A DNA stretch of 63,990 bases, counting the filler, from Asterionella formosa (Eukaryota): NCBI GenBank assembly GCA_002256025.1. It is 17 parts of 17 records of this genome, joined end to end, with 100 filler letters (N's around TTAATTAATTAA, not from the genome) between each part and the next. Parts side by side here need not be neighbours in the genome. Positions count along the whole stretch, not along the records: positions 1 to 21,364 come from NKIB01003031.1; 16 more parts are not named here. One strand, given 5' to 3'. This document shows, piece by piece, positions 8,834 through 33,648 of the stretch (position 1 is the first letter of the stretch; each line of letters begins with the position of its first letter). Position numbers and translations under genes: made by a program. The notes beneath the pieces are model-generated. The model was given only the letters and a program-made list of their open reading frames with translations, ran no database searches and had not been told where the DNA came from.

Positions 8834-11800
8834 CTACGTGTCAGTGCCAGTCATATATCCCATCCAATTGACTGTTTCGGTTGTAGTAATTGCCCTACGG
8901 TCGATTTGAAGATTGGATTCTCGAACTCCGTTTCGTAATTCCTCTGTAACTGTTGCCAGTTCTTGTTGGTTTAATGTCTCAAGTTGAATGGTCTTGCAAA
9001 CACTCATCACACCGTTCTTGTCGCCAGCCAGCAATGTATCCTGACGTTCTCCTTCTACCTTCAAGGCAGTAATGGCGCACCTGTGGGCTCTATCCATCAT
9101 TAAGTGCCGCATTTTGAGAATACGAGCATCATAGTCTAGCCCCCAAAAACGTATTTCTCCGTTAACGTGACCGGTAACAGCAACGATACCCTGGTCCATC
9201 CATTCTGGGCAATCAGTAGAAACTGCACAGCTTGGACGGGAATGAGGTCCGAAATACTCACCTGGTCCAACAGAGGACAAAAACTGGCCATTGATATCAA
9301 AGACGCTCAAGTGTGATCCGACCAAAGTAACAATATTGCCATTTTTGTGGTTTATCGACACCGAGATGGAAGGGTTGTCCGAGGCTGCCCCAGGGAGCTT
9401 TTTAGCCTTCTCTTTGAAAGGGTGTCGGAGGCGACGCATGAACGTAAGTGTTCGCAGGTCCCACAACAAGACATTTCCCATTGCGCAACCTGTAACAATA
9501 GTACCAAAGACAGTGCTCAAGTCAATGCAGGTGATGTGACCACCTTCGTGTCCGCAGAGAGTAGCACGGAGATCCATGTTCTGACCATCATATCTCCAAA
9601 CGCGTACCGTAGAATCTACGCATCCTGTGACAAGCCACAACCCATTCAGAGAAGCCTTAGCAAAACTGATTGGTGCTCTGTGCATGCAGTCGTGAATAGT
9701 CAACATCTTGTTCAGTTTATGGTGACGAGCAGAAGTTGTGGCCACATGTACACTGACACCGTTATTGGGTCCTCCGTATCTATAGTACTTCTTTTGAGGA
9801 ACAATCAGTGTACAATTACGACCAACTCCAACAATCTGGCCTTTTACCAAGCACATGTCACCGACAGATGCATCTGTTTGTCCAGCCATTCCCACCTTGA
9901 CTGTATCAGTTAGAGTGGGGCGCACGTGGACTCTCTGCGGGGCCCCTACAATACAAAATGGAGGAGTCAATGGAGCAAGGTAAGCAAGAGCTCCAAAGTC
10001 TATGCTTTTTTCTCTTAGCGACGTCTGGAAAAACCGCTGCGTGAAGGGTTTCCTTTCGATCATCTTCGGCGTCTGTCCAAAGTTCTGTGCAGATTGGATG
10101 GCTGATTCTCGAAGAATTGGGTCGTCAAGGGCATCGATATCGATATTTCCTTCGTACGAATAATGTGGAAAAACATTCAAAGCGGCTATCGCTTCTCTGC
10201 CCTTCTGCTTGTACCCAAAGACTAGATCAATCCACTGATGCAGATTCCGACTGACGTATTCACTCTCAAGCGCTTGGCGGTTAAGCCTGATGAATCTTTC
10301 AGGTGAACCTTTAGCCCAAACTGGCAGCGTTACATCATCAATAGTCTTTCCAGTCTGTGTTATTCCGAAATCGAATCCGTTCTTATTGTCGAGGAATTCA
10401 GGTAGATAGAAGAACTCCGGGATAAGTTCACGTACATCTTGTTGGTTCTCGGCACTTGCACTGCGCCAGCTACTACCAAGATTGTGAAATAAACGATCAG
10501 CAACGTCGAAACGACCGCCTTGCAAGCGTAATGCCAAACGACTGAAGGGTTCCAGACGCATCAAGTAGTACAGTACGTATGCTGCACAGGAATAATGAGT
10601 ACCGTAATGAGCAGGCTCCATACCACTCTCCTCGTACATGATATACTTCTCGCGGAACTGCTGCGCTCGCGCTGCGCCTTGACCTCCCATGGGCTTCGAC
10701 AGATCTCTGTATGTCTTGGGATTATCCAGATCAAGCTCCTCGCTCTCGTAGTCGGCAATTACCCAGGGAAAAACAGGGTATTGAGTCAAATCGTTGTAGG
10801 ATCTACCCGCGAATGAGTTCATATGCATCAGGAGGTCGAAATTCGTAATTTTTCCGCTGACCCATTGAGCGATAATCTTTGACTTCCATGAATTCATGAA
10901 CTTCTTGTAATTTATCGATGTGCCATAGCTGGAACTGAATATGCTATTTGGAAGTGGCGAGTTTAAGACCTTGTTGAGTACCTCTTCTCGCTCATTTTGG
11001 CTGTTGAAAGCGACGAGCGTTGCACTTCGATGAATATCAAAGAATTCTAGAGCGACATTCTGAAGTTGGTAACGACGCTGAAACACTGAATAAAGCTCAT
11101 TGAAAGAAATTCGTTGACTACGATGCTGATACGTGATATCTTCAGACTCGTCTTGGTCGTCTTTCGTCTTCCCGTGACCTCCGAGGGTATCGTGGTGATG
11201 ACGACTTTCTGCCCCTTCTTCTCCACTCTTTTTTCTCAAGTTGATGTAGAACGTTGACGTTTCCTTTTCGACACGCTCTATTTTCCCTTCTAAGCCTTCG
11301 CCCTCCGTCAACTCGAACCCATCGATGATATAAACAGCGCCACGGCACCAGAGTAGAAGGGCCTTTACAACTTCCAAGCCCATACATCTGCTGACATTGT
11401 ATGACTTCTCGGGCCAGTCTCCGGCTTCGAGCAGACCAGTGATGAGGTCATAACTTGAAGCATTAACGTTGTCTTCCTCTCTCTCATCATCGTCGTCATC
11501 ATCGTCGTGCCCTACCTGTGATTGACCACCGTTTAATTGTTCCCCTTCCTTGACCGTTGGTTGCAATTTCGTTTCTCCAGAAACTGACCCATCCTTTCTT
11601 CCAATACCCGATTCGAAGCCAGACAGAGTACTTGCTGCTATTGTGTCAGTGTCATAGTCGTCGAAGTCGTCATCATCGTCGTTGCCCGTCTTCTTAATCA
11701 ACTTGTTAAGCAAGGCGGCTGCATCTTCCAAGGATTCAGTTGGAACAAAAAACTCAGCAGTCGCCGTTCGCCTTCCTTGCCCACTTGATCGCATGCTGTG

Positions 11801-14800
11801 TCCTCCTGTTCCAAGGGAGCCCCTTATAATGGTCGAGAGCATTCCAGAGTCAACAGAAGGATCATCGTAATCTTCGTCTTCTTCGTCTTCCTCCAGAGTG
11901 ATTCCAATACCTGATTTATTACCGTTCCCTTCGTCGTCGCCTTCGTTCAATCCATAAAGGCCGTACCACTCGTAGTTGGGTAGCATTCTACGCCGTTGCC
12001 TTTCATATCCTTCGGTCAAATCTAACTTCCACCGAGTTACAAGCTCCGAGGACGAATATGCGTACCTGTTGCCAGGTATCTCTTCCTCGTCGCTAGATTT
12101 GTTTATAGTCTCCTTTTCCCTTGGAACTAGCGCATCTAGAAGTCTAGTCTTCGAAAAAGGCGTCAGGGCTTCTTCGTCGTACCAGGATTCCCCTTCCCAG
12201 ATAGAGCAGGTGCCCTTCAATTGCCGTAGTAGAACCTTCCACTGGAGTGCACCTGACGAGAGGTCATCAAATCCTTGGCGTTTCCAAAGTAACTGGCTCT
12301 CGGCAGTTTTTTCGTGGCTACGCTGAGATAACTCAGCACGCTCCAATCCGCCAAGAATGGTACGATCAGAAGAATCTTGTGAAGTCAGTCGAAGAAGCAT
12401 ACTCTTTTGTTCGTTTTCAATTGCATCCTCCGGTGTAGAAGTTCCCATCGCAAAACTTGGGAAAAGGCGAGTAGACAATGTGTGAATACTGAGAAAAACA
12501 GCGTCGACTTGCGATTGGTTTCGATCGAGCCAATCAAAGAAAGATGAGTATTTTTTCTTGGATCCATGGTTCGGTCCTCCTGATCGTCTTGGCACAGTGG
12601 ACACGTTCTCTGCGATCGTCGCCGCTTCGTGGGCAACAAGGAGCGCTCCAAAACCACCACGATTCATGATGTCGACGGTTTCCATTCGATCACCACGAGG
12701 CACCTCAGCAATGAGAAGTTCAGACATCATTCCCCTTCGTTGCTGCAAGAGTGACACCACTATGGTGACCGCAGTATCTCGTAAATCTTCACGCTGGTCA
12801 ACGAGGAGCATGTGAATCTCATCCATTAAGGCAACCACAAAGGCCTTGTCAGGTTCTTCCATGACAGTCAGGTCGGGATACGTACACTGGAGAGTAGGAG
12901 GGCAGCAACGAGCGAGGCTATCGGATTGCCACAGTGGGTACATTCGACTTCCAGGTGGTGGCGTTGGAAAAGAAGAATTCACGCTCATCTGCGACTGCCT
13001 ACGAGGACCTTGGTTTCCACCTCCACTGGGCACAATCAAAAGCGAGTTGATGTTTTCATTGACGATATCAAGAACAGCAGCCTTAAGATCTTCGTCACCT
13101 TCATCATATGGAAACATTGGACGACTGCGCCTGAGAGCAGTCAAACATGTTAACCGCGACAAATGAGCAGCGTCGGCTGCTAGCATGTTCTGCTCTGTAT
13201 TGCCAAGGGTTCTCGAGGCATATGTTCCAGTCGTAACGAGGCAGCTCAAAGTTGAAACAATGATGTTGACTGTTTCCAAGACAGGTTCGGAAGTAAAAAA
13301 GCCTGCCATTAGGCGATCAAGAAGCACTGAACTTACACCTATACAGTTGGCCAATGCAATTGGATCCCCGCGCTGAAGTGCGTCTTCAACGACACTCTTA
13401 CAATGCTCGATTAAAACAAGATGAAAGGCTTCAACTTGCTCTGGGGAAGCATGAATAGGAAAAGATCGAAACAGTGCACTGACAAGCGGAGCAGCTAGCG
13501 GACCGGTAAGCACCGCATGCGAAACAACCAGGCGCAGTAGCTGCACCATGCCGATACCACTGCTTCCGGTTTCTTCTTCTGGTCGGCCAACGAATCTCTC
13601 CGTAGCGGTCTCATTCTGGGGTATTTCAGCTAGACTGCCGCGTCGACGCATCTTTTTTACACCTCCTTGTTGCAGATTTGGCATGAAAATATCAGATACG
13701 GCTCTCCCCTGCTGCCGCTGCTGCATACGCTGCAACTTTTCGTCGTGAACTAGACACAGAGCTTGAGCGAGTGGTTCCAGAAAATCAGGAGTCCTACAAA
13801 ACTCCTGGAAGGCCGTCGAGAATCTGTGGCGATGAGACAGCAGCTGCAAAACAGCTTTATTAGCTTGTCTAGCCTTTCGTCCAAGCTCGTTATTAAAAGG
13901 GGTGAGCTGAATGTTGCGCCCAAGGCACTCTGCCAGAAGGGCAAAAATACCACATGATGGATCTGAATGGTGGTGAAGGCCACCATAGCCCAAGTCAATC
14001 ATCACTAACTCTGTCGTATCACTTTCGTTATCAAATACCTCACAAAGCTGAGAAGCATCTAAAACTCCGAAACAAGGGAGATGCAAGATGGGCGCGTGAA
14101 GTAACTGACTCAGCATAGACATGGTAATACTTGGACAAGTCGAAAATTTTGGGATGCTCAAGACTAGTGGAGCAAAGCCACCGGCTTCCTCGAAACTTGA
14201 AGCGAACATTGGCGAGCTCTGCAGCATTAGCATCATCAGACGGAGGACGGCAGAAGCAGATGCTTCTTCATGGCAACCTTCAAGTAAGCAAGCAAACCAG
14301 ACTGGAGTAAGTACCCCAGCAAATGCATTGAGAAAAGCCTGTGCCTGCTGATGCTTAGGATGGAAAATGAAATCATCGGAATTTGAACCGTCTGTTCCAG
14401 GGCGTCTCTTGCCTCGCATCAGAGTTGTCGTCAAGTATGTTTGGTTTGTGCTGGCACCTCCACCAGCGTGGAGGATAATTGTGGGTTCAGATGTTCCCTC
14501 TCCGTCTACTTTCTTGTCAGTTCCCGAGGCAACGATTTCATTGACTCCGTCAACAACCAACTCTTCGATTAATCGAAGCAAATATACTCTGGCGACAGGG
14601 CCTGGCATTAATTTCTCGTCGTCGTTACTATCCGATTCTTGGCCTGTCGGTTTCTGTCCAGATCCGCTCACTCGTCCGTTCGTTGAGATACTTATAGTAT
14701 AGATAGCTGCTTCTGCGATGGCCTCGAGATCACCAGGGGTTAGCATAAATGTAAGGACTCGCCTTAGAAGGGTTTTACATGCTTGAAGAAGTGCATTGTC

Positions 14801-17800
14801 AGGGTCACCACCAACAGATGTAGACTCTACAGAAGGAGGCTTACAATACCAAGCATTTTCAGCAGCATTCGAAGTTACCATGCCATCTGTATCTCCATTC
14901 CCGTAAGAAGTTTTGGCTTGAGACATTGCAATCTCTCCCAGCGTATAAAACTCGGCTGCTTCGAGCATAAGGTGAAGGGTCCATCGCACAATACCAAGCG
15001 AGTGCAAACGTCGAGAATTGAATGCCTTGTGTGCAGAACTTTGAGCAACAAGACCGTTCAAGAACGACAGCAATCGCAAAGGGAGATCGGGACCTGAGTT
15101 CCTCATATCCCAGACTTGGTGGTTTAACAAAAGATACTTCATGGCGTCCAGGTCGGCAAATACCCATCTATCAGAGTTTGGCCAAAGGTCCGAAATACGG
15201 CCTGGTTGGCCGTCACCGTTCATATATGCTTCCGCTTTGTCCATCTCCGATGGTTGAAAGCCGTGGACGGCGAAGGCAACGCACTGATCAAGTACGCTTG
15301 AATCCATGATCTTCTTCTGACGCAGCAACACAGCCAACATCTTGTATCCACCTCCTGCCTGAAGCATCTCAAGGTTTGGTGGATGTCTATGAACACTCTC
15401 ACGGATGAGACGGAGGGCAGGCGCAAGAGTTCGGGCTGAGCAAGCTGCATTTATGATGGGGAGAAGAATACTTGGTCCACCAACCCATTGGATATTGTCC
15501 GCAAAGCAGTGAGGAGACATTACACTTCCAGTTCCGTACACGATTGCATCAGAGGAGACATCTTCGTGATTTGAGTTTATTCTGGCAACATTAATCAGAC
15601 GCAACGCATAGCCCTTCTTTTTTGCGGATGACGATCCACTACGCATGCTGCTGTTATTTGATCCCGCCCGGAACCCAAACAAAACCAAGTCGGGATTGAC
15701 AGAACAGAGCAAACCGAGCGATGCCAAAGAGTCCGAGTTGAGCACTTGGTTAGCTCCTCTTTCTCGCGTCACCCTTCCAGCAGCTTCGAGTCTTGGAATG
15801 TCACGTCGCCTAAGAGCACCCGCGACACTTCCTTGTTCTCCACTTTCTGCCAACATGGCAAATGCTGAAGTACTGACAGCTGCGAGAGAAAGGCGTTGTG
15901 GTCTGTCGCCCCAAAACATACCTTGGAAATCAGGGCCACTCATGAAAATAGCTGTTGCATCGATATTTGTCAATATTGCACCAATCATAAGAGTTGGTCC
16001 AAGCTCCCAGGGTGGCAAAGTTCCGCGAACGTAGCCACTCACCGCAAGTTGTGGATTCGGGACACCGATGTGAACCCTTGCATTTGGAGGAAGATTCACA
16101 CTCTCGACACGAACCTCTGCTTCCAAAGGACGTCCATCTACAAACAAGCCGATTACTGCTTTTCTTGACAGCATGGGCCGCTTCGGCGGAAGGTATGTAG
16201 CCATGACGTGATGCCAAACACCTTGTCGTAACGGAGAAACAGGAAAGCATATTGGTTCATTTCGATATGATGTGGATGACAGAACAGTGAATCTCTGATT
16301 TTGAATATCATACCAGAGCGAAAGATAGTCATGGTTTGCAAAAAAAGCTGGGCTGGAAAGATCCAAGACAAACAAACTGCCATTCACGTCATCTGCTACA
16401 GGTTTTGTCATACGAAGCCAAACAGAGAAAGTAAATCCAATGCTTGCAAGGGGCGTCCAAATCCTCTCACCAGAGCTTGAAGACGGGGCTTGGGTTCCAG
16501 CAGTGCTAGCGCCACCATGCACTGCAGCAGAAGAGTCGATACTCTCAATCTCGAGGAATTTGACTCTCGATTCTTCGGCCATTTTGTAGAATCGCTCCTC
16601 AATTGGAATATCATGCAAGTAAACAGCAATTGTATTCAGAGTATCACCACCTACTTCGCACCGAGGCACTCTGTCACCACGTTCAGCGATAATTGAGAGA
16701 GTTTCCAGTCGATTACAGAAGTCTGATTCTTTGGCTTGCCATGCTTCGGACGCGATCACATGAGGTGAAATTTGTGGTTGGGTTGATTGGACCTTGACTG
16801 ATGAGCTGATAACAGGAAGGCGAATGCGCGTATCGTTACTGTCAGGCCTCAGAATGGGTCCAGCAATACACCGTAGCATTCCCACGAAATCCATGTAAGT
16901 CATACTAAAGGCAGCAATCCGTCTGAGCAACAGCACAAATCGAGAATAAAGGTGGTGAGATCGATCTACAAGGATGAGGGCAAACTCATTTCGGTTTGTC
17001 ATGCTCCAGCTCAAGCCGCACAAGGCTATTTGAGATAAAGTTGATCCTGTCATTTCAGGTGCACAAAGTCTCAGCATTTCATCGAGTGCTCGTTTGGATA
17101 ATAAAACTCCGGACTCAGTCATCGGCAAACATATAGCGACGCCCATAACTAGCCGAGAAGCGTCTGGGTTTCGCACAAATTGTGTCTTCATGGTTTCTTC
17201 CTTTTTTACATCTCTGTCCGAAGAAAACCGTAAAGATGGATCAACGAAAGCCAAGGAGAGATTCATCACTGCAAGGGCACCACGTGATGACTTCAAGATG
17301 CCAGTACCGGCAATTGCTGTTGCAAAATCGACATAAAAACCTCGTTGGTGGAGATACAGCTTGTTGTTGCCAATTGAGGATGCAAACATTTGGGAGCTGA
17401 ATTCTTCCGTAAGAACATCAGCAAAACCAGATGTCGCTGAAAGTGGTATGATCAAGGAGCTATGTCTATTGGCATTCGGTATAGTCGCCGCACTTAGTAA
17501 GCCAAATAAAATTTCGAGGAGCTTCATGGTGGCAGACTCTGTTGTCGTAGTGATATCCTTTTCATTTTTACGGCCGTTGCTTCGGTTATTTTCCATTTCG
17601 TGGACCACTCCTTCAAGACAAAGTGGTGCTCTAACTATACATTCAAACCCGGCACTCATTCGGAATGCATCTTGAGCCATGTCGCTTCCCTCAAGCACAC
17701 ATTTCAACATATTGAACACTGCTGCTTCACGAATAATGGTATGAGGGTTAATTGGTATTTTCTCTTGTTCAATTAGCTTCTGTTCTGGAGCCTTGATGTC

Positions 17801-20233
17801 GAAACTCAGCCCCCTTTTCCGCTTCGATACTGGTCTAAAAACAGAAATGCATTGCATTCTACCTGTCATCTTCGCGAAACTATCCAAAAGCTCAACTACG
17901 AAATCCATATCTTTTTTCATGACATCAAGATTTTTTTCATGGACCATCTTCGCTTCGATTACACCCAGTGCAGCGAACGACGCTTCTTCGCCCAGGTGGT
18001 TGACTGCTGTTTCCAGTAGTACGTTTAAGTTTTTTGGTCCACGAGCATCGTCGTAATTGATTGACGATCCAGCCGACTTCGAAACGATTAACTTAAGAAC
18101 TCGACAAATGGAAGTAAAAACGCGATCCAGTGGAGTTTTCAAAGGTGGCTCGAAAAATAACTTTCCGTCCATTTCGAACATGCCATTCTGATTTTCGGCG
18201 ATGCTGCCAGTAACTTGCATAACGTAGTCTAGTACTTCACCCAACTTGCTAGACAAAATTCCACCATCGATCATTATCTGTGAAACTCTATCGTCGAATT
18301 CTAGCAACTTTTCTAGTGTGCCGCACATCATTTCAGTATCCAACAAAAGTGACTCATATATTCGAGCCTCTTCTTCTGAATCTAATTCAATTCCGTTGGC
18401 TCCTTTCAGTAGACTCTTGCACAGTGCAAAGAATATCTCACTTGCAACAGTCAAGGGCTTCATTGGGTCTGTCCCTGCCACTCCTGTCAGTACATATTCC
18501 AATGTCTTCAAGATAAGAACCTTCAAGCTGATATCTTCAAAGGTTGGGAAAGCTAACAGGTAATATGATAGAATTCGGTGTCGCTCCTCTATGATGTCGT
18601 AGTTTTTTGCGTGGTCTGAATACATCTGCAAAGTAGTCACAAGAAGCTCCATTGCCAGATTAAATTCGTCGGTTCCACTCGCATTTATTCCTGCGAATCG
18701 AACGTTCAGAGCTGTTCGCATTGAGAAGGTCGCGAGCTCTGTCAAACTTTCTTCAGTGGAAATATCTGGGCGCTGGCCACCATAAACTTGATCGAACTCT
18801 TTCAAAAGAGGTACTGATCGAACCATCAATTCTTCTACGATATCAAAGGCGGCAGGGTTAGTCGCTAGCTTCATGTTTTCGTTATCTTGGTCTGGTCGGT
18901 GATCCATATCAACATTGTGATCGCCATTTTCAGTGTCCCCGCTCATTCGAGAAACCATATCAGGGTTAATTTCCGTCTTGCAACATGCTAGTGTCGTGAC
19001 AAGTTCCAGGAGCTTCTTCGCGTGCGCACTGTTTGAATTTGCAATTGCATAACAGAGAACATGATATCCACCTGCGGTGCTAAAGTCATGAAGCAACTCT
19101 AAGCATCGGTGATTGCAAGACTGAACAACCAGATTCACTACTGTCTTGAGTGCAACAACCCAAAGTCCAGCCTCTTCCGCCGCGTCTCCGTATAAACATA
19201 GCGTCGACGACGCCGACGACGACGCTGCGGCCATTCCACAAAGCTCTTTGATATCATCGGTCATGTGAATAATCATCTTTCGATCGCGAAGAAACCATAC
19301 CAACGATGTTGAAAGACAATGTTCAGAGAAAGCAATAATAACAGCAGACGCAGCGCCGGAAACGTGAACACCCGAAAGGGGATATGAAGCACCGGATAAC
19401 GCCAGAAGTCCGAAAAGGTGAGGTCGTAGTTGCTCGCCTACGCTGGGGTCTGTGCAAAGGAGACATAATAGCCTCGAGACCTTTGAAGTCGCATTCGTAC
19501 TTATTGACTGAGCTGCTCCTTGGCCTCGCTGCTGCTGTGCGTTCGCGTGTTGCAGCTCGAGGACTCGAAGCAGTCGCAGACAATGAATCAGATTTGGAGG
19601 GAGCTCGTTTTCCACACATCTCACCACAAACTTATCGCATTGCGAATTTTCCAGAAGTATATCGATATCAGATTCGTTTCTTGAAAACATCCCTCCCTGG
19701 TCTTCATCACTGCCACCAAGAAGCCTAAGTAATTGTGATTTCCATTCACTATGAGAACCTCCATGCTGTCGCCCACTTCCTTTGGCAGCCATGACAATTC
19801 GTTGCACCCCATCGCCGAGATTCCTTGCAGCTACGCTCACTCTTCGCTCCATTTCTGCATCTGCTGCAGAGGGCCCTCTTGCCATAAATGCCATGAATCC
19901 ATCTTTTTGCCTCGTTCTGGGACGCGATCAAAACAGGGTTAGCATTTGCAGCTGTTGAAATGACCATTTCTAACTTGCAATCTTTCCGCAACATGGCTCA
20001 ATCTTTGCCTCCTTCATTGTGTATCAAAGCACTTACGATTGAACAGCTCTAGTACTTCCTGGCATCCCTTGACGACCTCCTCGTTCACTTCCAGGACCCG
20101 GATCCGCTCCATCATACCCGCCAGTACCACCTGCTGTAGAATTAGTACCAGACCCTGAATCTGGAAGAGTTCCTGTGCCTCGATCATTGCGATCGTCGCC
20201 AGGATCTTTATTGCCAAATAACCAACCTCTCAT
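8834..20233 (-). CDS. BEACH-domain protein (ConA/LamG-like, PH, BEACH, WD40; WDFY3/SPIRRIG/LvsA-like); exons 20233-20037 and 19916-8834, 3759 aa
   Basis: BEACH motifs GRSYNDLTQYPVFPWV, HYGTHYS, DVRELIPEFFY, WIDLVFGYKQ and FGQTP, with C-terminal WD40 repeats. A 120-nt intron 20036-19917 (GTAAGT..GCTAAC..CCCAG) joins the 20233 ORF in frame to the 19894 ORF. Confidence 0.93.
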
Positions 20234-20689
20234 TTCTTTTTCTAATTACACAATATTTGGGGCCTAGCATTCAAAAAGGGATCCACAATATCGAATCTCC
20301 GGCGGCCTCCTGGTTGTTATAAGAAGTTTTTTGATGAGGACTTAAAAAGGAAACGGCCTTGCTATTCTCGATGACCGCGGTTTTCCTTTGCTCATTACGA
20401 GGATCTGTTCGGGAGTAGTGGTCACATTTTTACGTGTACTCCCTGTAGTTACGGCGCGGACAATGAGCGTACTGGTACCGGTACCAGAGGAAGGTCCAGT
20501 AATCGAGAAATAGTTTAGCTGAATGTTTTTTATGTAAAAAACGTGTTTTACCGGACCTTAGAAGCAGGTAGAATATGCTGTCGTGGAGGAGTTTCGAGAA
20601 TATTTTTTTGGTGGGTGGTCAAGAATACCAACCAGGTAGTAATCATGTGACCTTTGTGAACAAGCTATGTACCTGGTACCCTGGTACTG

Positions 20690-20865
20690 TGTTGAAACTG
20701 TTAATATCTGCATATGATGCTCCATACATGCGCCGTACGAACCATACCGGCGCAGCCACCAGATTAGGTACATGCGTGAGTGCTAACAACGATGTACTTG
20801 GAACAGCAATAGAATAGTCATAATATTGTAGTTCACCTTTATTCACGATAAGGTTCCCCTCAACA
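20690..20865 (+). mobile_element. Putative 5' LTR (176 bp) of a CoDi-type Ty1/copia retrotransposon
   Basis: Bounded by inverted termini TGTTGA (20690-20695) and TCAACA (20860-20865), about 150 bp upstream of a CoDi gag ORF. The 3' LTR is not in the window. Confidence 0.7.
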
Positions 20866-21012
20866 GAACTACAATATCTGTTCTTTCTCTCTTGTCCGCA
20901 CCTGCGAAGTTGCGGGTCTTGTCGACAGTGCAAACCAGCACTGGTCTCAACAATCAACCGTCCAGCACCGCTTGCCCGTTCGCTGTCCCTGTCTCTCAGG
21001 CCTTCTTCCACC

Positions 21013-21364
21013 ATGACGACTCCAATCGTTTCCGCTGTTTTCCCCTTCCCTCATCCGCTCTTGACGCCGATCGAGGGCAAACCTACAGCCTTCACTGTAA
21101 CCCGCCTTCGCAAGGAACTCTTTGCCAACGCTCGCTCTGTCCACTGTACCAGTGGTGGTGGTGCCAATGGTTTCCTTGGTATTGTCATGGCTGCTGCTCC
21201 TTATCTCTTACGTGCCGGTGAACCCTTTGTACCGCCTGAACATCCCGGCATCCAGCCGACACACAGTGCTACTGCAACACAGTCCCAAATCACTGCTGCC
21301 AACCGTCTCTTTGACACCTCCCTTGACGCATTCCGCCGTTACTCCCAAATCCGTGAAATTCTCC
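21013..21364 (+). mobile_element. Gag N-terminus of diatom CoDi-type copia retrotransposon, truncated by contig end
   Basis: FPHPLLTPIEGKPT...LRKELFANARSVHCTSGGGANGFLGIVM matches the gag start I recognise from diatom CoDi elements. The frame is open to the gap. Confidence 0.78.
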
Positions 21365-21464: not shown

Positions 21465-22356
21465 TAAAGGCTCATCCTCCAATCAAGGAATTTCAAGTTC
21501 AGAATATTGTGGATACCAGTTTGCTGCATCATATGCAGCTCGAGCTACTATTTATAGTACATTGTGTATTTTCACCAGGAACATGGGTTTTCCAACATGA
21601 TTTGATTACAGATATGTAATTGATATTGGGATATCAATGTCGATAAGTGATAATTGACAAATGACTACGTCGTGATAATTTCCGTTGTCATTCTTGCGAT
21701 TACAAGGTTGTTGATGAGGCTTTAATCCTATTGGATAATCCTACTACCTTGGATAACCATGGACGAGGTCCTTATTCTATTTATTCAAGTACATACCAAT
21801 GGTACAATTACTTGTCAACAAACTATGCATACTACGGAACGAATTAATATCCATTACATCCAACCTTTTCAAAGGTAAAAGGTTTTCCCTTGGTGTGGGA
21901 GAGTGAGCGATCTTGCGCATCAATACAGACGTATATAGGGTTAGTGTTATATCATACATGTATAAGAACTCAATAATGAGAGAACTCGACTAACCCTCAT
22001 TGTATACTTTGGTGTCGACTTGGAGAACGAGTTATACACAAGGATTAACAAATAAGCTCATATATTCAACAAATACTACTACTTCTAGTTAGATACTTCA
22101 CCTGGTACCAGGGTACATACTCCGGAGTACCAGTTATTATACATAGAATCCTACAAAATATAAAAATCGAATGTAAACCCGGCATAAATCATAGTCGTCA
22201 CATCACAGATGTTGGCACATGATAATGATAGACGAGTTGACAGTCATTTCATTTTATCTCAACAACTTGTCCATCATAATACATTGCCCTCCATTTATTA
22301 TAGTTAGTTTTGCAGATTGTGCGATAAGCTAAGCTGCCCGCTGTTCAGCCCACATC

Positions 22357-28141: not shown

Positions 28142-29027
28142 GCATCATAAAGCGTCCCTTGGAGTCTGGAACTACTGCGGGGTGTTCTGACACTGGCTGA
28201 GGTTTAATTTGTTGGAGGCTAAAGAAATTTGTCAGAGTATTTCCGGCACCATGCCGTCATTTATAGACATTCTGACCGCAACAGAATTGCCACTCAATTT
28301 CTAGTATAATAAAATTAGTGGTACCTGGTACCCTGGTACAGCAAAACAGAAGAAGGCTATCTTGCGTTGCTATGTAGCTCGTTCAATCGTTCTAGCGAGG
28401 ATACGGTTGCTCTCAATAACCAAGGTTGATTAGTTTGCAACTGTGTATACTCTGAATCCCGGTTCCATCATAAAAATAATAAATCTATCTTACTCCTATA
28501 ATCAGCCTAAGACTACAAATGTTATTCTGTTAGTTAGACCTATGTGGTCCTCCTTTCCGAGTCCTAGTACCAGGTACCAGGTAGTAGCAATGATTAGCTA
28601 TTTCTGCAAGCAAGTGCAGAAAACACAGCTAATTGAGTAATAAAGCAGCCAGAGCAATGTATCTTCATGGTGCAAAATCAAATTGAGCAGAGAATTTATA
28701 AGAGGACTTCAGGGATGGAACAGGTAAGTGGGATAGTAAGCACCTTGTCCAAGATAAATGTTTGACGTTGGACACCTACTCTGGAACCTTTTGAGTACCA
28801 GGTACCGTAGTACAGGCAGGATAGCAATTGTTGGGTTCGTCTCCCACACTCCTTGCCGTCCCGCACGGTCTTGCCTGCAAGTACAAGAAAAAGTGGGACT
28901 CGGCTGATGTTAGCATTGGTGCGTTTCTTCTTATGGAACAACAAACAACAAGAACGGAAGAGAGCTGTCGATTGATATGCGCATGCATCAATGCTTTCTT
29001 TGATTGGCTGATGGACCAGCACCAGCC

Positions 29028-32633: not shown

Positions 32634-33648
32634 CTTGACGAATAAATTACGAATTAAGATTTAGTGGACCGGTAGAATTATGTTATTGACGAAGAATATA
32701 GGATTGTGATGTTCTTTGCTTGAAGGGTCGGATGCGAATTTTTTTTGTGTCAATCGATTTTACATGAGATCGATGCATATTCCGGTAAATACGTAGCTAT
32801 CATTGGCTGTTGAAACACAGCGCCAAATTAACAAAGAAACTGTAGAATGTGTTCGCATTGGGGTATAGACATATTGCAATACGGATCTTACAAAAACATC
32901 AACCAAAAGGGGTTCGGATTCTCGTCGGATTCATCCTACATACCGGTACCTGGTACCGGTAGTATGTTCAGCCGAGTACCTGGTACTGGTACCAGGTACC
33001 TGATGGTAAGCTCGGTGTCACCTCAAGGAGATCAATTTTGATACTGTGGCTGATGCTTAAATGTTTTCTAGCGTTTACGAATACAAAATAAGAACGGTAC
33101 TGGTAGATTGAGGAATAGTACCGGTACCTGGGACCTGATAGAAGACCACACACAGGTACCAATTGCAAAACATTTGTATTTCTATACATATATTTTTATA
33201 GTCGAATGGTCGGCGATTACGCCAGAGCGAACGCAAATACCGCTATGTATGCCAAGAATAGGAAGTGAAGCCAAGTACCGGCACTTGAAGGTCACAAGGC
33301 CATAAGGGTGTCATCAATTTAACTGGTACCCTGGTACTACAAGGTACTGGCACTGGTACCAGGTACCGGTCCTGGCAGGCCACAAACGTTTTCCCATTTC
33401 TTTACCCATGAAGTGGTACATAGAGTTGTACCAGGTACAAGGGGGGTGGTACCGGTACCGGAATTCACTCCAAACGAGGTGCGAACGCATCGAACAATGC
33501 GTTAATCAAAATATCAAAACCAGACATGCGATGCCTGCACATGAAGCAATGCTCAGCAATCAATGTCAACATACGGTACGTAGCTTTGTGATAGCATCAC
33601 AAACATCGCATTTCATTTGCTCACAAATCGAGCGGATCATTTGATATA

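Follow-up and report, generated by a model that had tools for sequence, protein, structure and literature searches.

The DNA analysed here (the window; 63,990 nucleotides from Asterionella formosa, assembly GCA_002256025.1, in 17 joined parts) contains, at the end of its first part, the 5′ end stub of an LTR retrotransposon, with a 5′ LTR and the beginning of gag in front of an assembly gap (Table 1). Judged by the proteins of its relatives, the element is a diatom Ty1/copia-type LTR retrotransposon.

Table 1. Features of the element stub, with positions along the window
Feature	Position	Strand	Evidence or remark
Flanking host DNA, TGTTGAAAC	20690..20698	+	Contigs of 4/4 runs diverge before 20699; LTR starts of L003 and L004 match 20699
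5′ LTR, 167 bp, TGTTAA...TCAACA	20699..20865	+	Loose contig ends before 20699 and behind 20865; both LTRs of L003
TCATAA, conserved Inr-like motif with the predicted start T20821	20818..20823	+	31-sequence comparison; fit to TCAH(+1)W
5′ arm ATATTGTAGTTC, proposed self-primer, whose 3′ end would be C20834	20823..20834	+	Complement of 20866-20877; homologous arm covaries
31-nt loop, remainder of R/U5, with a small inner hairpin (20835-20839 with 20850-20854)	20835..20865	+	RNA fold
3′ arm GAACTACAATAT, putative primer-binding site (PBS), from the first base after the LTR	20866..20877	+	Exact complementarity; loose contig ends; L030
First 117 gag codons, ATG at 21013, cut by the gap	21013..21364	+	Translation; gag relatives
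Assembly gap, N runs around the linker TTAATTAATTAA	21365..21464	.	Remainder of the element, including the 3′ LTR, missing

LTR boundaries and relatives of the element

For boundary mapping, contigs of four public runs (one DNA, three RNA-library) were placed on 20560-21160. In all four, the contigs match from 20699 on and differ before it, and the flank 20560-20698 has zero cover. L003 is a metagenome contig of 5.6 kb that shares 98.9% identity with the window stretch and carries the window LTR at both ends of a 5.4-kb internal region; TGTTAATATC follows the flank at its 5′ LTR and follows GGTGAGGGTG at the start of its 3′ LTR. Because of the contig divergence and these junctions, the LTR is set at 20699-20865. 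An earlier note on this DNA had started it at 20690, which is wrong; the flank happens to begin with TGTT. The right end at 20865 given in the same note, the boundary on which the finding depends, stands, since contigs of the DNA run X5 and the RNA-library run X18 match up to this position and then diverge from the window. Upstream of 20699, the sequence in three RNA-library runs ends in GGTGAGGGTG, a polypurine-like tract, and RNA-library contigs span the internal 3′ region, the LTR and gag, which could be due to graph merging, read-through or DNA as the source. No second LTR was found in the window (one search used a query from 20690, including 9 flank bases), and the sequence after the gap gave no match to the related element loci.

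A search with the gag N-terminus in a representative library returned 1749 relatives at E<=1e-3. When a 12-sequence gag alignment was run against metagenome contigs, 235 stretches matched and 36 were confirmed, leading to 35 loci. Three of them (L001-L003) belong to the window's own family, with 97-99% gag protein identity and 98.5-99.6% identity to the window over LTR and leader, and the other loci have 42-86% gag protein identity (L035 has only a 28-residue match). Among viral contigs, the exact PBS pattern had 0 matches, and the gag alignment had 202 pattern matches with zero confirmed.

In L001 and L030, gag is followed by one stop codon and then by a pol of about 1350-1380 residues in the same frame. 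The L030 pol contains RVT_2 at residues 809-1005 (36.9 bits; cut-off 31.6). In L001, RVT_2 at residues 914-1030 scores 20.9 bits, below the Pfam cut-off, and the integrase-linked SH3_retrovirus domain lies upstream of it at residues 441-497 (25.5 bits, below the cut-off of 27). The reverse transcriptase (RT) region has 1511 relatives at E<=1e-10; the named sequences among them belong to the diatoms Fistulifera, Cylindrotheca, Fragilaria and Nitzschia, and some are called “Reverse transcriptase Ty1/copia-type”. The assignment to diatom copia-type elements follows from RVT_2 in the pol of relatives and from these named diatom sequences, the copia-type RT and the domain order having been tested on L030 and L001 since the window carries gag only. 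The Tf1/sushi group, which belongs to Ty3/gypsy, is excluded because of RVT_2 and the integrase-linked domain upstream of RT. LTRs of the related loci are very short (128-224 bp). For CoDi, the diatom copia groups of Maumus et al. (2009), a range of 153-844 bp is given (PMC2806351); the 167 bp of the window LTR and the diatom names of the relatives fit CoDi, a label that we use as putative.

Several features of the relatives were observed in addition. In all loci long enough (16 of 16), gag ends at a single stop (TGA, TAG or TAA) and pol continues in frame, for example at L001:1289-1310 and L030:1362-1383 as well as in 14 more loci; the window gag is cut before this site. A GGGGAGC-like motif (GGGAAGC, GGGGAAC, GGGGAGT) is conserved six bases after the gag stop, and from sequence the two together resemble a signal for programmed read-through. 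In front of the 3′ LTR, the polypurine tract is a near-invariant G[AG]GGGTG, mostly GGTGAGGGTG (e.g. L003:5530-5539), and is kept across families whose LTRs, starting with TGTTGA or TGTTAA, are otherwise unalignable; before window position 20699 it exists only as loose contig ends. Many metagenome contigs (e.g. the whole of L001, whose repeat period is 5418 nt, and L002:4438-4604) are circularly permuted or run from the pol 3′ end through the polypurine tract, one LTR and the PBS to gag. They are probably assembly collapses of two LTRs, and one-LTR circles or tandem copies would look alike. L006:555-951 has tandem LTRs of related families 15 nt apart, with a spacer that ends in the polypurine motif. 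It is a rearranged or recombinant copy, and its extra LTR end (15 nt, then a new LTR) was set aside as boundary evidence.

A covarying stem at the LTR boundary

As the earlier note had claimed, the LTR contains a 12-mer (20823-20834) whose exact reverse complement, at 20866-20877, follows the last LTR base. The 64-kb window has no further perfect copy of this 12-mer, 20866-20877 carrying it on the minus and 20823-20834 on the plus strand; at <=1 mismatch there are 3 matches versus 0.30 expected. The resulting stem of 12 bp allows no extension, A20822 being opposite C20878. The RNA fold of 20815-20885 reaches -15.2 kcal/mol, compared with a shuffle mean of -6.58 (z -3.73), and 2 of 200 shuffles are as stable. 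A search of the 450 nt preceding gag for perfect stems with loops of 20-70 nt returned this same 12-bp stem as the longest, while 20 shuffles gave at most 9 bp. The stretch is unchanged in contigs of independent public runs. No TGG-type start follows the LTR in the window, again in agreement with the earlier note, and ARAGORN detected no tRNA genes in the window.

A stem at the same place exists in 30 of the 31 related loci that show the region (35 loci in total), the exception being L007, where the region is present with no stem and the LTR is largely deleted. Most of these stems (26 of 30) have 10-15 contiguous Watson-Crick pairs from the LTR boundary. Of the other four, L009 has 9 pairs and a G-U, L012 and L020 each pair at 11 of 12 positions, interrupted by a single internal mismatch, and L034 pairs at 10 of 12. 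The remaining loci are cut off upstream (L023, L029), carry unrelated upstream DNA (L028) or show a weak partial match (L035). A position-blind search was also run on the 450 nt in front of every gag start, looking for the longest perfect stem that closes a loop of 20-70 nt. The homologous stem or its outer part won in 29 of 35 loci and in the window, at 8-15 bp, versus 4-9 bp in coding regions of the same length and at most 11 bp in shuffles (20 per sequence). In the winning stems, a conserved CATAA immediately precedes the 5′ arm, and the LTR end, TCAAYA or a variant, immediately precedes the 3′ arm. The loop is 26-40 nt long in 31 of 31 sequences.

The 5′ arm occurs in 14 different variants, and the 3′ arm follows each change. 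For the covariation test, 31 sequences were reduced to 23 distinct rows by dropping 8 duplicates. On four measures none of 500 shuffles reached the observed value, counts that are not probabilities and overstate independence because the rows have common ancestors: of 273 cells, 95.2% pair (shuffled mean 74.9%), 9 of 12 pairs are changed on both sides (5.2), 57 cells are changed on both sides (15.6), and the covariation score is 0.541 (0.147). Two results are independent of the shared-descent problem. When the partner is slid by 1-3 columns, pairing falls to 23.5-39.2%; and L016 and L018, which share 95% identity in the last 80 LTR bases and all of the 18 bases after the arm, have two 5′-arm differences, both compensated in the 3′ arm. 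RNAalifold, given no structure, predicted 10 of the 12 pairs, and compensatory changes occur in 8 of these. Complementarity of the post-LTR bases in related families, which the earlier note had named as a check, is thus present in the 30 loci, with arms that covary.

The small hairpin inside the loop was considered as a clade-wide feature of the U5-IR type and rejected, for it holds only in the window's subgroup. Across the relatives 72.8% of its cells are paired, and both-side change is seen in only 1 of 5 pairs, a weak covariation.

Proposed self-priming and its alternatives

In LTR elements the start of minus-strand synthesis sets the end of U5 and with it the end of the repeated part, so the 3′ end of the primer has to pair there. 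By this logic of LTR formation the 3′ arm is taken as the PBS, because the repeated LTR ends where the arm begins. In both families whose right end is fixed, namely the window family and L030, no base separates the LTR from the 3′ arm. In L030 both LTRs end in ACATCAACA, followed by GAGCTACCTAAC at the 5′ LTR and by CCAGGCTC at the 3′ LTR, so that the repeated part ends directly before the arm. The first base of the 3′ arm is G in 31 of 31 sequences and none of the 31 starts with TGG. The sequence downstream of the arm is unconserved between families.

A single host RNA cannot fit all families because there are 14 arm variants, and the own 5′ arm fits every stem-bearing family; on this argument from arm diversity, complementarity to a host tRNA fragment is improbable. 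Many arms contain TAGCTC or TAGTTC, which we take to resemble the start of a tRNA D arm. The idea that the 5′ arm is a tRNA 5′ fragment was rejected, as L022 and L018 lack both motifs and the copy inside the LTR would be left unexplained.

The hexamer in front of the arm is TCATAA in 21 of the 31 sequences, CCATAA in 5, GCATAA in 3 and TCACAA in 2. In other words, CAYAA stands directly before the arm in all 31, though elsewhere the LTRs have diverged beyond alignment. An initiator-like motif of diatoms, TCAH(+1)W, was proposed by Kadono et al. (PMC4686930), and 23 of 31 sequences fit TCAHW. The match hints at a transcript start at about T20821, two bases before the arm and in line with the start near 20823 suggested in the earlier note, and it is a hint only because the motif is common, being reported for 67.9% of P. 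tricornutum 5′ flanks in the same paper. Pairing would begin 2-3 nt after the predicted +1. A start at 20821 would give an R+U5 of about 45 nt and leave about 31 nt for strand transfer after primer removal, which is short.

We consider it likely, with a probability of roughly 0.8, that the element primes its own reverse transcription in a Tf1-like manner by pairing of the LTR-internal arm with the PBS. This interpretation, put forward in the earlier note, is supported by the covarying arms of related families and by the position of the 3′ arm at the LTR boundary in two families. Transcription would start from the conserved TCATAA. The RNA from about +3 to +14 (20823-20834) would then fold over the loop and pair with 20866-20877, a pairing that both the sequence and the covariation show. 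By analogy with Tf1, the RNase H of the element may cut after C20834 and free a 3′ OH, from which RT would extend the primer through the loop (U5/R). The LTR boundary is observed where such synthesis would begin, and under this proposal the repeated LTR ends exactly at 20865 because the extension runs through the loop. The strong-stop DNA would transfer to the 3′ R, and later plus-strand synthesis would copy the primer back into the PBS. Such re-copying would keep the arms complementary as families diverge and would account for the clean covariation. A host tRNA would not be needed.

The stem might instead be a conserved RNA structure with another role (packaging, dimerisation or translation control), while a host RNA primes at the same or a nearby site. 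Covariation proves that the pairing is kept, not its purpose, and retroviral leaders also carry conserved U5 stems. Moreover, the fungal GalEa copia elements are described with a hairpin at the PBS position whose role is obscure (PMC5445492). However, the LTR ends exactly at the 3′ arm, which means that DNA synthesis must start on the arm, and a PBS further downstream would lengthen the LTR. The 14 arm variants, which no single host RNA could match, and the unconserved sequence downstream of the arm also speak against it, and we regard this explanation as improbable.

Somewhat less probable still is a 5′ arm in U3, upstream of the transcript start. The RNA would then carry the arm at its 3′ end only, and the pairing of arm and PBS would be either long-range or in trans, with the RNA of another copy or a short LTR transcript as the trans partner. 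Priming would still rely on sequence of the element itself, but with no Tf1 fold-back. The unusually short R/U5 given by the start above, which is itself a prediction, would be in its favour, but the conserved Inr-like motif is found directly before the arm in all families, and the short loop in all 31 sequences suggests a constrained local hairpin. Chance or an assembly artefact, for which it could be said that the window has one LTR and no 3′ LTR for comparison, can practically be dismissed: about 156 LTR positions x 4^-12 give roughly 1e-5 per element, the stem recurs with differing sequences in 30 of 31 loci and is the same in independent runs, and the longest-stem search, the arm comparison and the covariation test all refute it.

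Comparison with known priming systems, and the insertion site

To our knowledge, self-priming has been demonstrated at the bench only in Tf1-type gypsy elements. In Tf1, the first 11 nt of the transcript are described to pair with the PBS, with an RNase H cut between bases 11 and 12 (PMC7175516). As in the diatom elements, the PBS of Tf1 and Tf2 (S. pombe), Tj1 (S. japonicus) and the Tf1/sushi group is reported to adjoin the LTR; their priming involves no tRNA, as is proposed for the diatom elements (PMC7175516, PMC4600332). The Tf1 PBS is likewise described as complementary to a short LTR segment at the transcript start, a start that is predicted in our case (PMC7175516). The arm is 11 nt in Tf1 versus 10-15 in diatom elements, and pairing starts from +1 in Tf1, whereas in the diatom element it would start about 3 nt after the predicted +1. 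In contrast to the Tf1/sushi elements, which are Ty3/gypsy with RT before integrase, the diatom element has RVT_2 with the integrase-linked SH3 domain before RT. Tf1-type priming has been shown experimentally, while the diatom elements, with their LTRs of 128-224 bp, are described here from sequence.

The earlier note was not aware of self-priming being described for copia elements. It has in fact been predicted already, for the plant Ty1/copia TAR lineage by Neumann et al., and an earlier proposal concerns Houba and Osr-1, as the account in PMC6317226 has it. According to this account, TAR resembles the diatom elements in being Ty1/copia with self-priming predicted from sequence; it is, however, a land-plant lineage, unlike the diatom clade, and the likeness is drawn from published statements, not from sequences. 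Half-tRNA priming is listed in the same source for Osser, Bryco and Gymco-II (1/2 tRNA-Met) and Bianca (1/2 tRNA-Ile), lineages which share with the diatom elements a copia PBS with no TGG start (PMC6317226). A half-tRNA PBS matches a host tRNA and is expected to be constant, whereas the diatom PBS varies by family and matches the own LTR.

GalEa is a branch grouped by its authors with diatom CoDi, and it is described as having no tRNA-type PBS (PMC5445492). Like the diatom element, it has a conserved hairpin right after the 5′ LTR, called a “conserved hairpin site” (PMC5445492). Its first motif, palindromic over 9 bp, takes in the final A of the LTR, and the authors state there that no complementary LTR/U5 sequence was found and that the Tf1 model does not fit (PMC5445492). 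In the diatom element, by contrast, the partner is inside the LTR and the 3′ arms are non-palindromic, which rules out a conserved hairpin site of the GalEa type. Full-text searching found no literature on how diatom copia elements are primed. Primer-binding sites go unmentioned in the main text of Maumus et al. (2009), whose additional file might list one (PMC2806351).

The idea of self-priming in copia is therefore already known from the plant prediction, and what is added here is the anatomy across a diatom copia clade, the whole of which shows it with unusually clean covariation. It offers a testable replication mechanism for abundant elements in ecologically important algae. Annotation pipelines that require a tRNA-type PBS may drop these elements and undercount diatom copia; the LTRdigest filter, for instance, keeps LTR candidates only with a tRNA-type PBS (PMC7466962). 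The result also bears on whether tRNA or hairpin priming is older, a question raised in PMC3601003, and on the role of the unexplained hairpin in the fungal GalEa elements, described as PBS-less (PMC5445492). A far-reaching extension, which we put forward tentatively and consider unlikely, is that self-priming is ancestral and universal in the diatom-wide copia clade (a large one, as public data contain >1,500 pol and about 1,750 gag relatives), the drifting primer/PBS pair acting as a family-specific lock that is independent of host tRNAs. On that reading the pair would drift freely, since every cycle would copy the primer into the PBS anew. If it were also true for CoDi and GalEa, it would support hairpin self-priming preceding tRNA priming in LTR retrotransposons.

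Around the insertion site, two further observations were made. A single ORF of 3686 codons (window 8834-19894, minus strand) ends about 800 bp upstream of the LTR insertion. The motif CTGGTACC has 24 sites in the window versus 1.04 expected, a number that 0 of 100 shuffles reach, and the sites are often clustered (e.g. 200-374, 20472-20487, 20673-20680, 22102-22111, 28325-28580 and 32950-33362). It could be an intergenic or promoter motif, and perhaps reflects an insertion-site preference; GGTACC is located within 25 nt of the insertion point in 3 of 9 true 5′ flanks (the window, L004 and L010).
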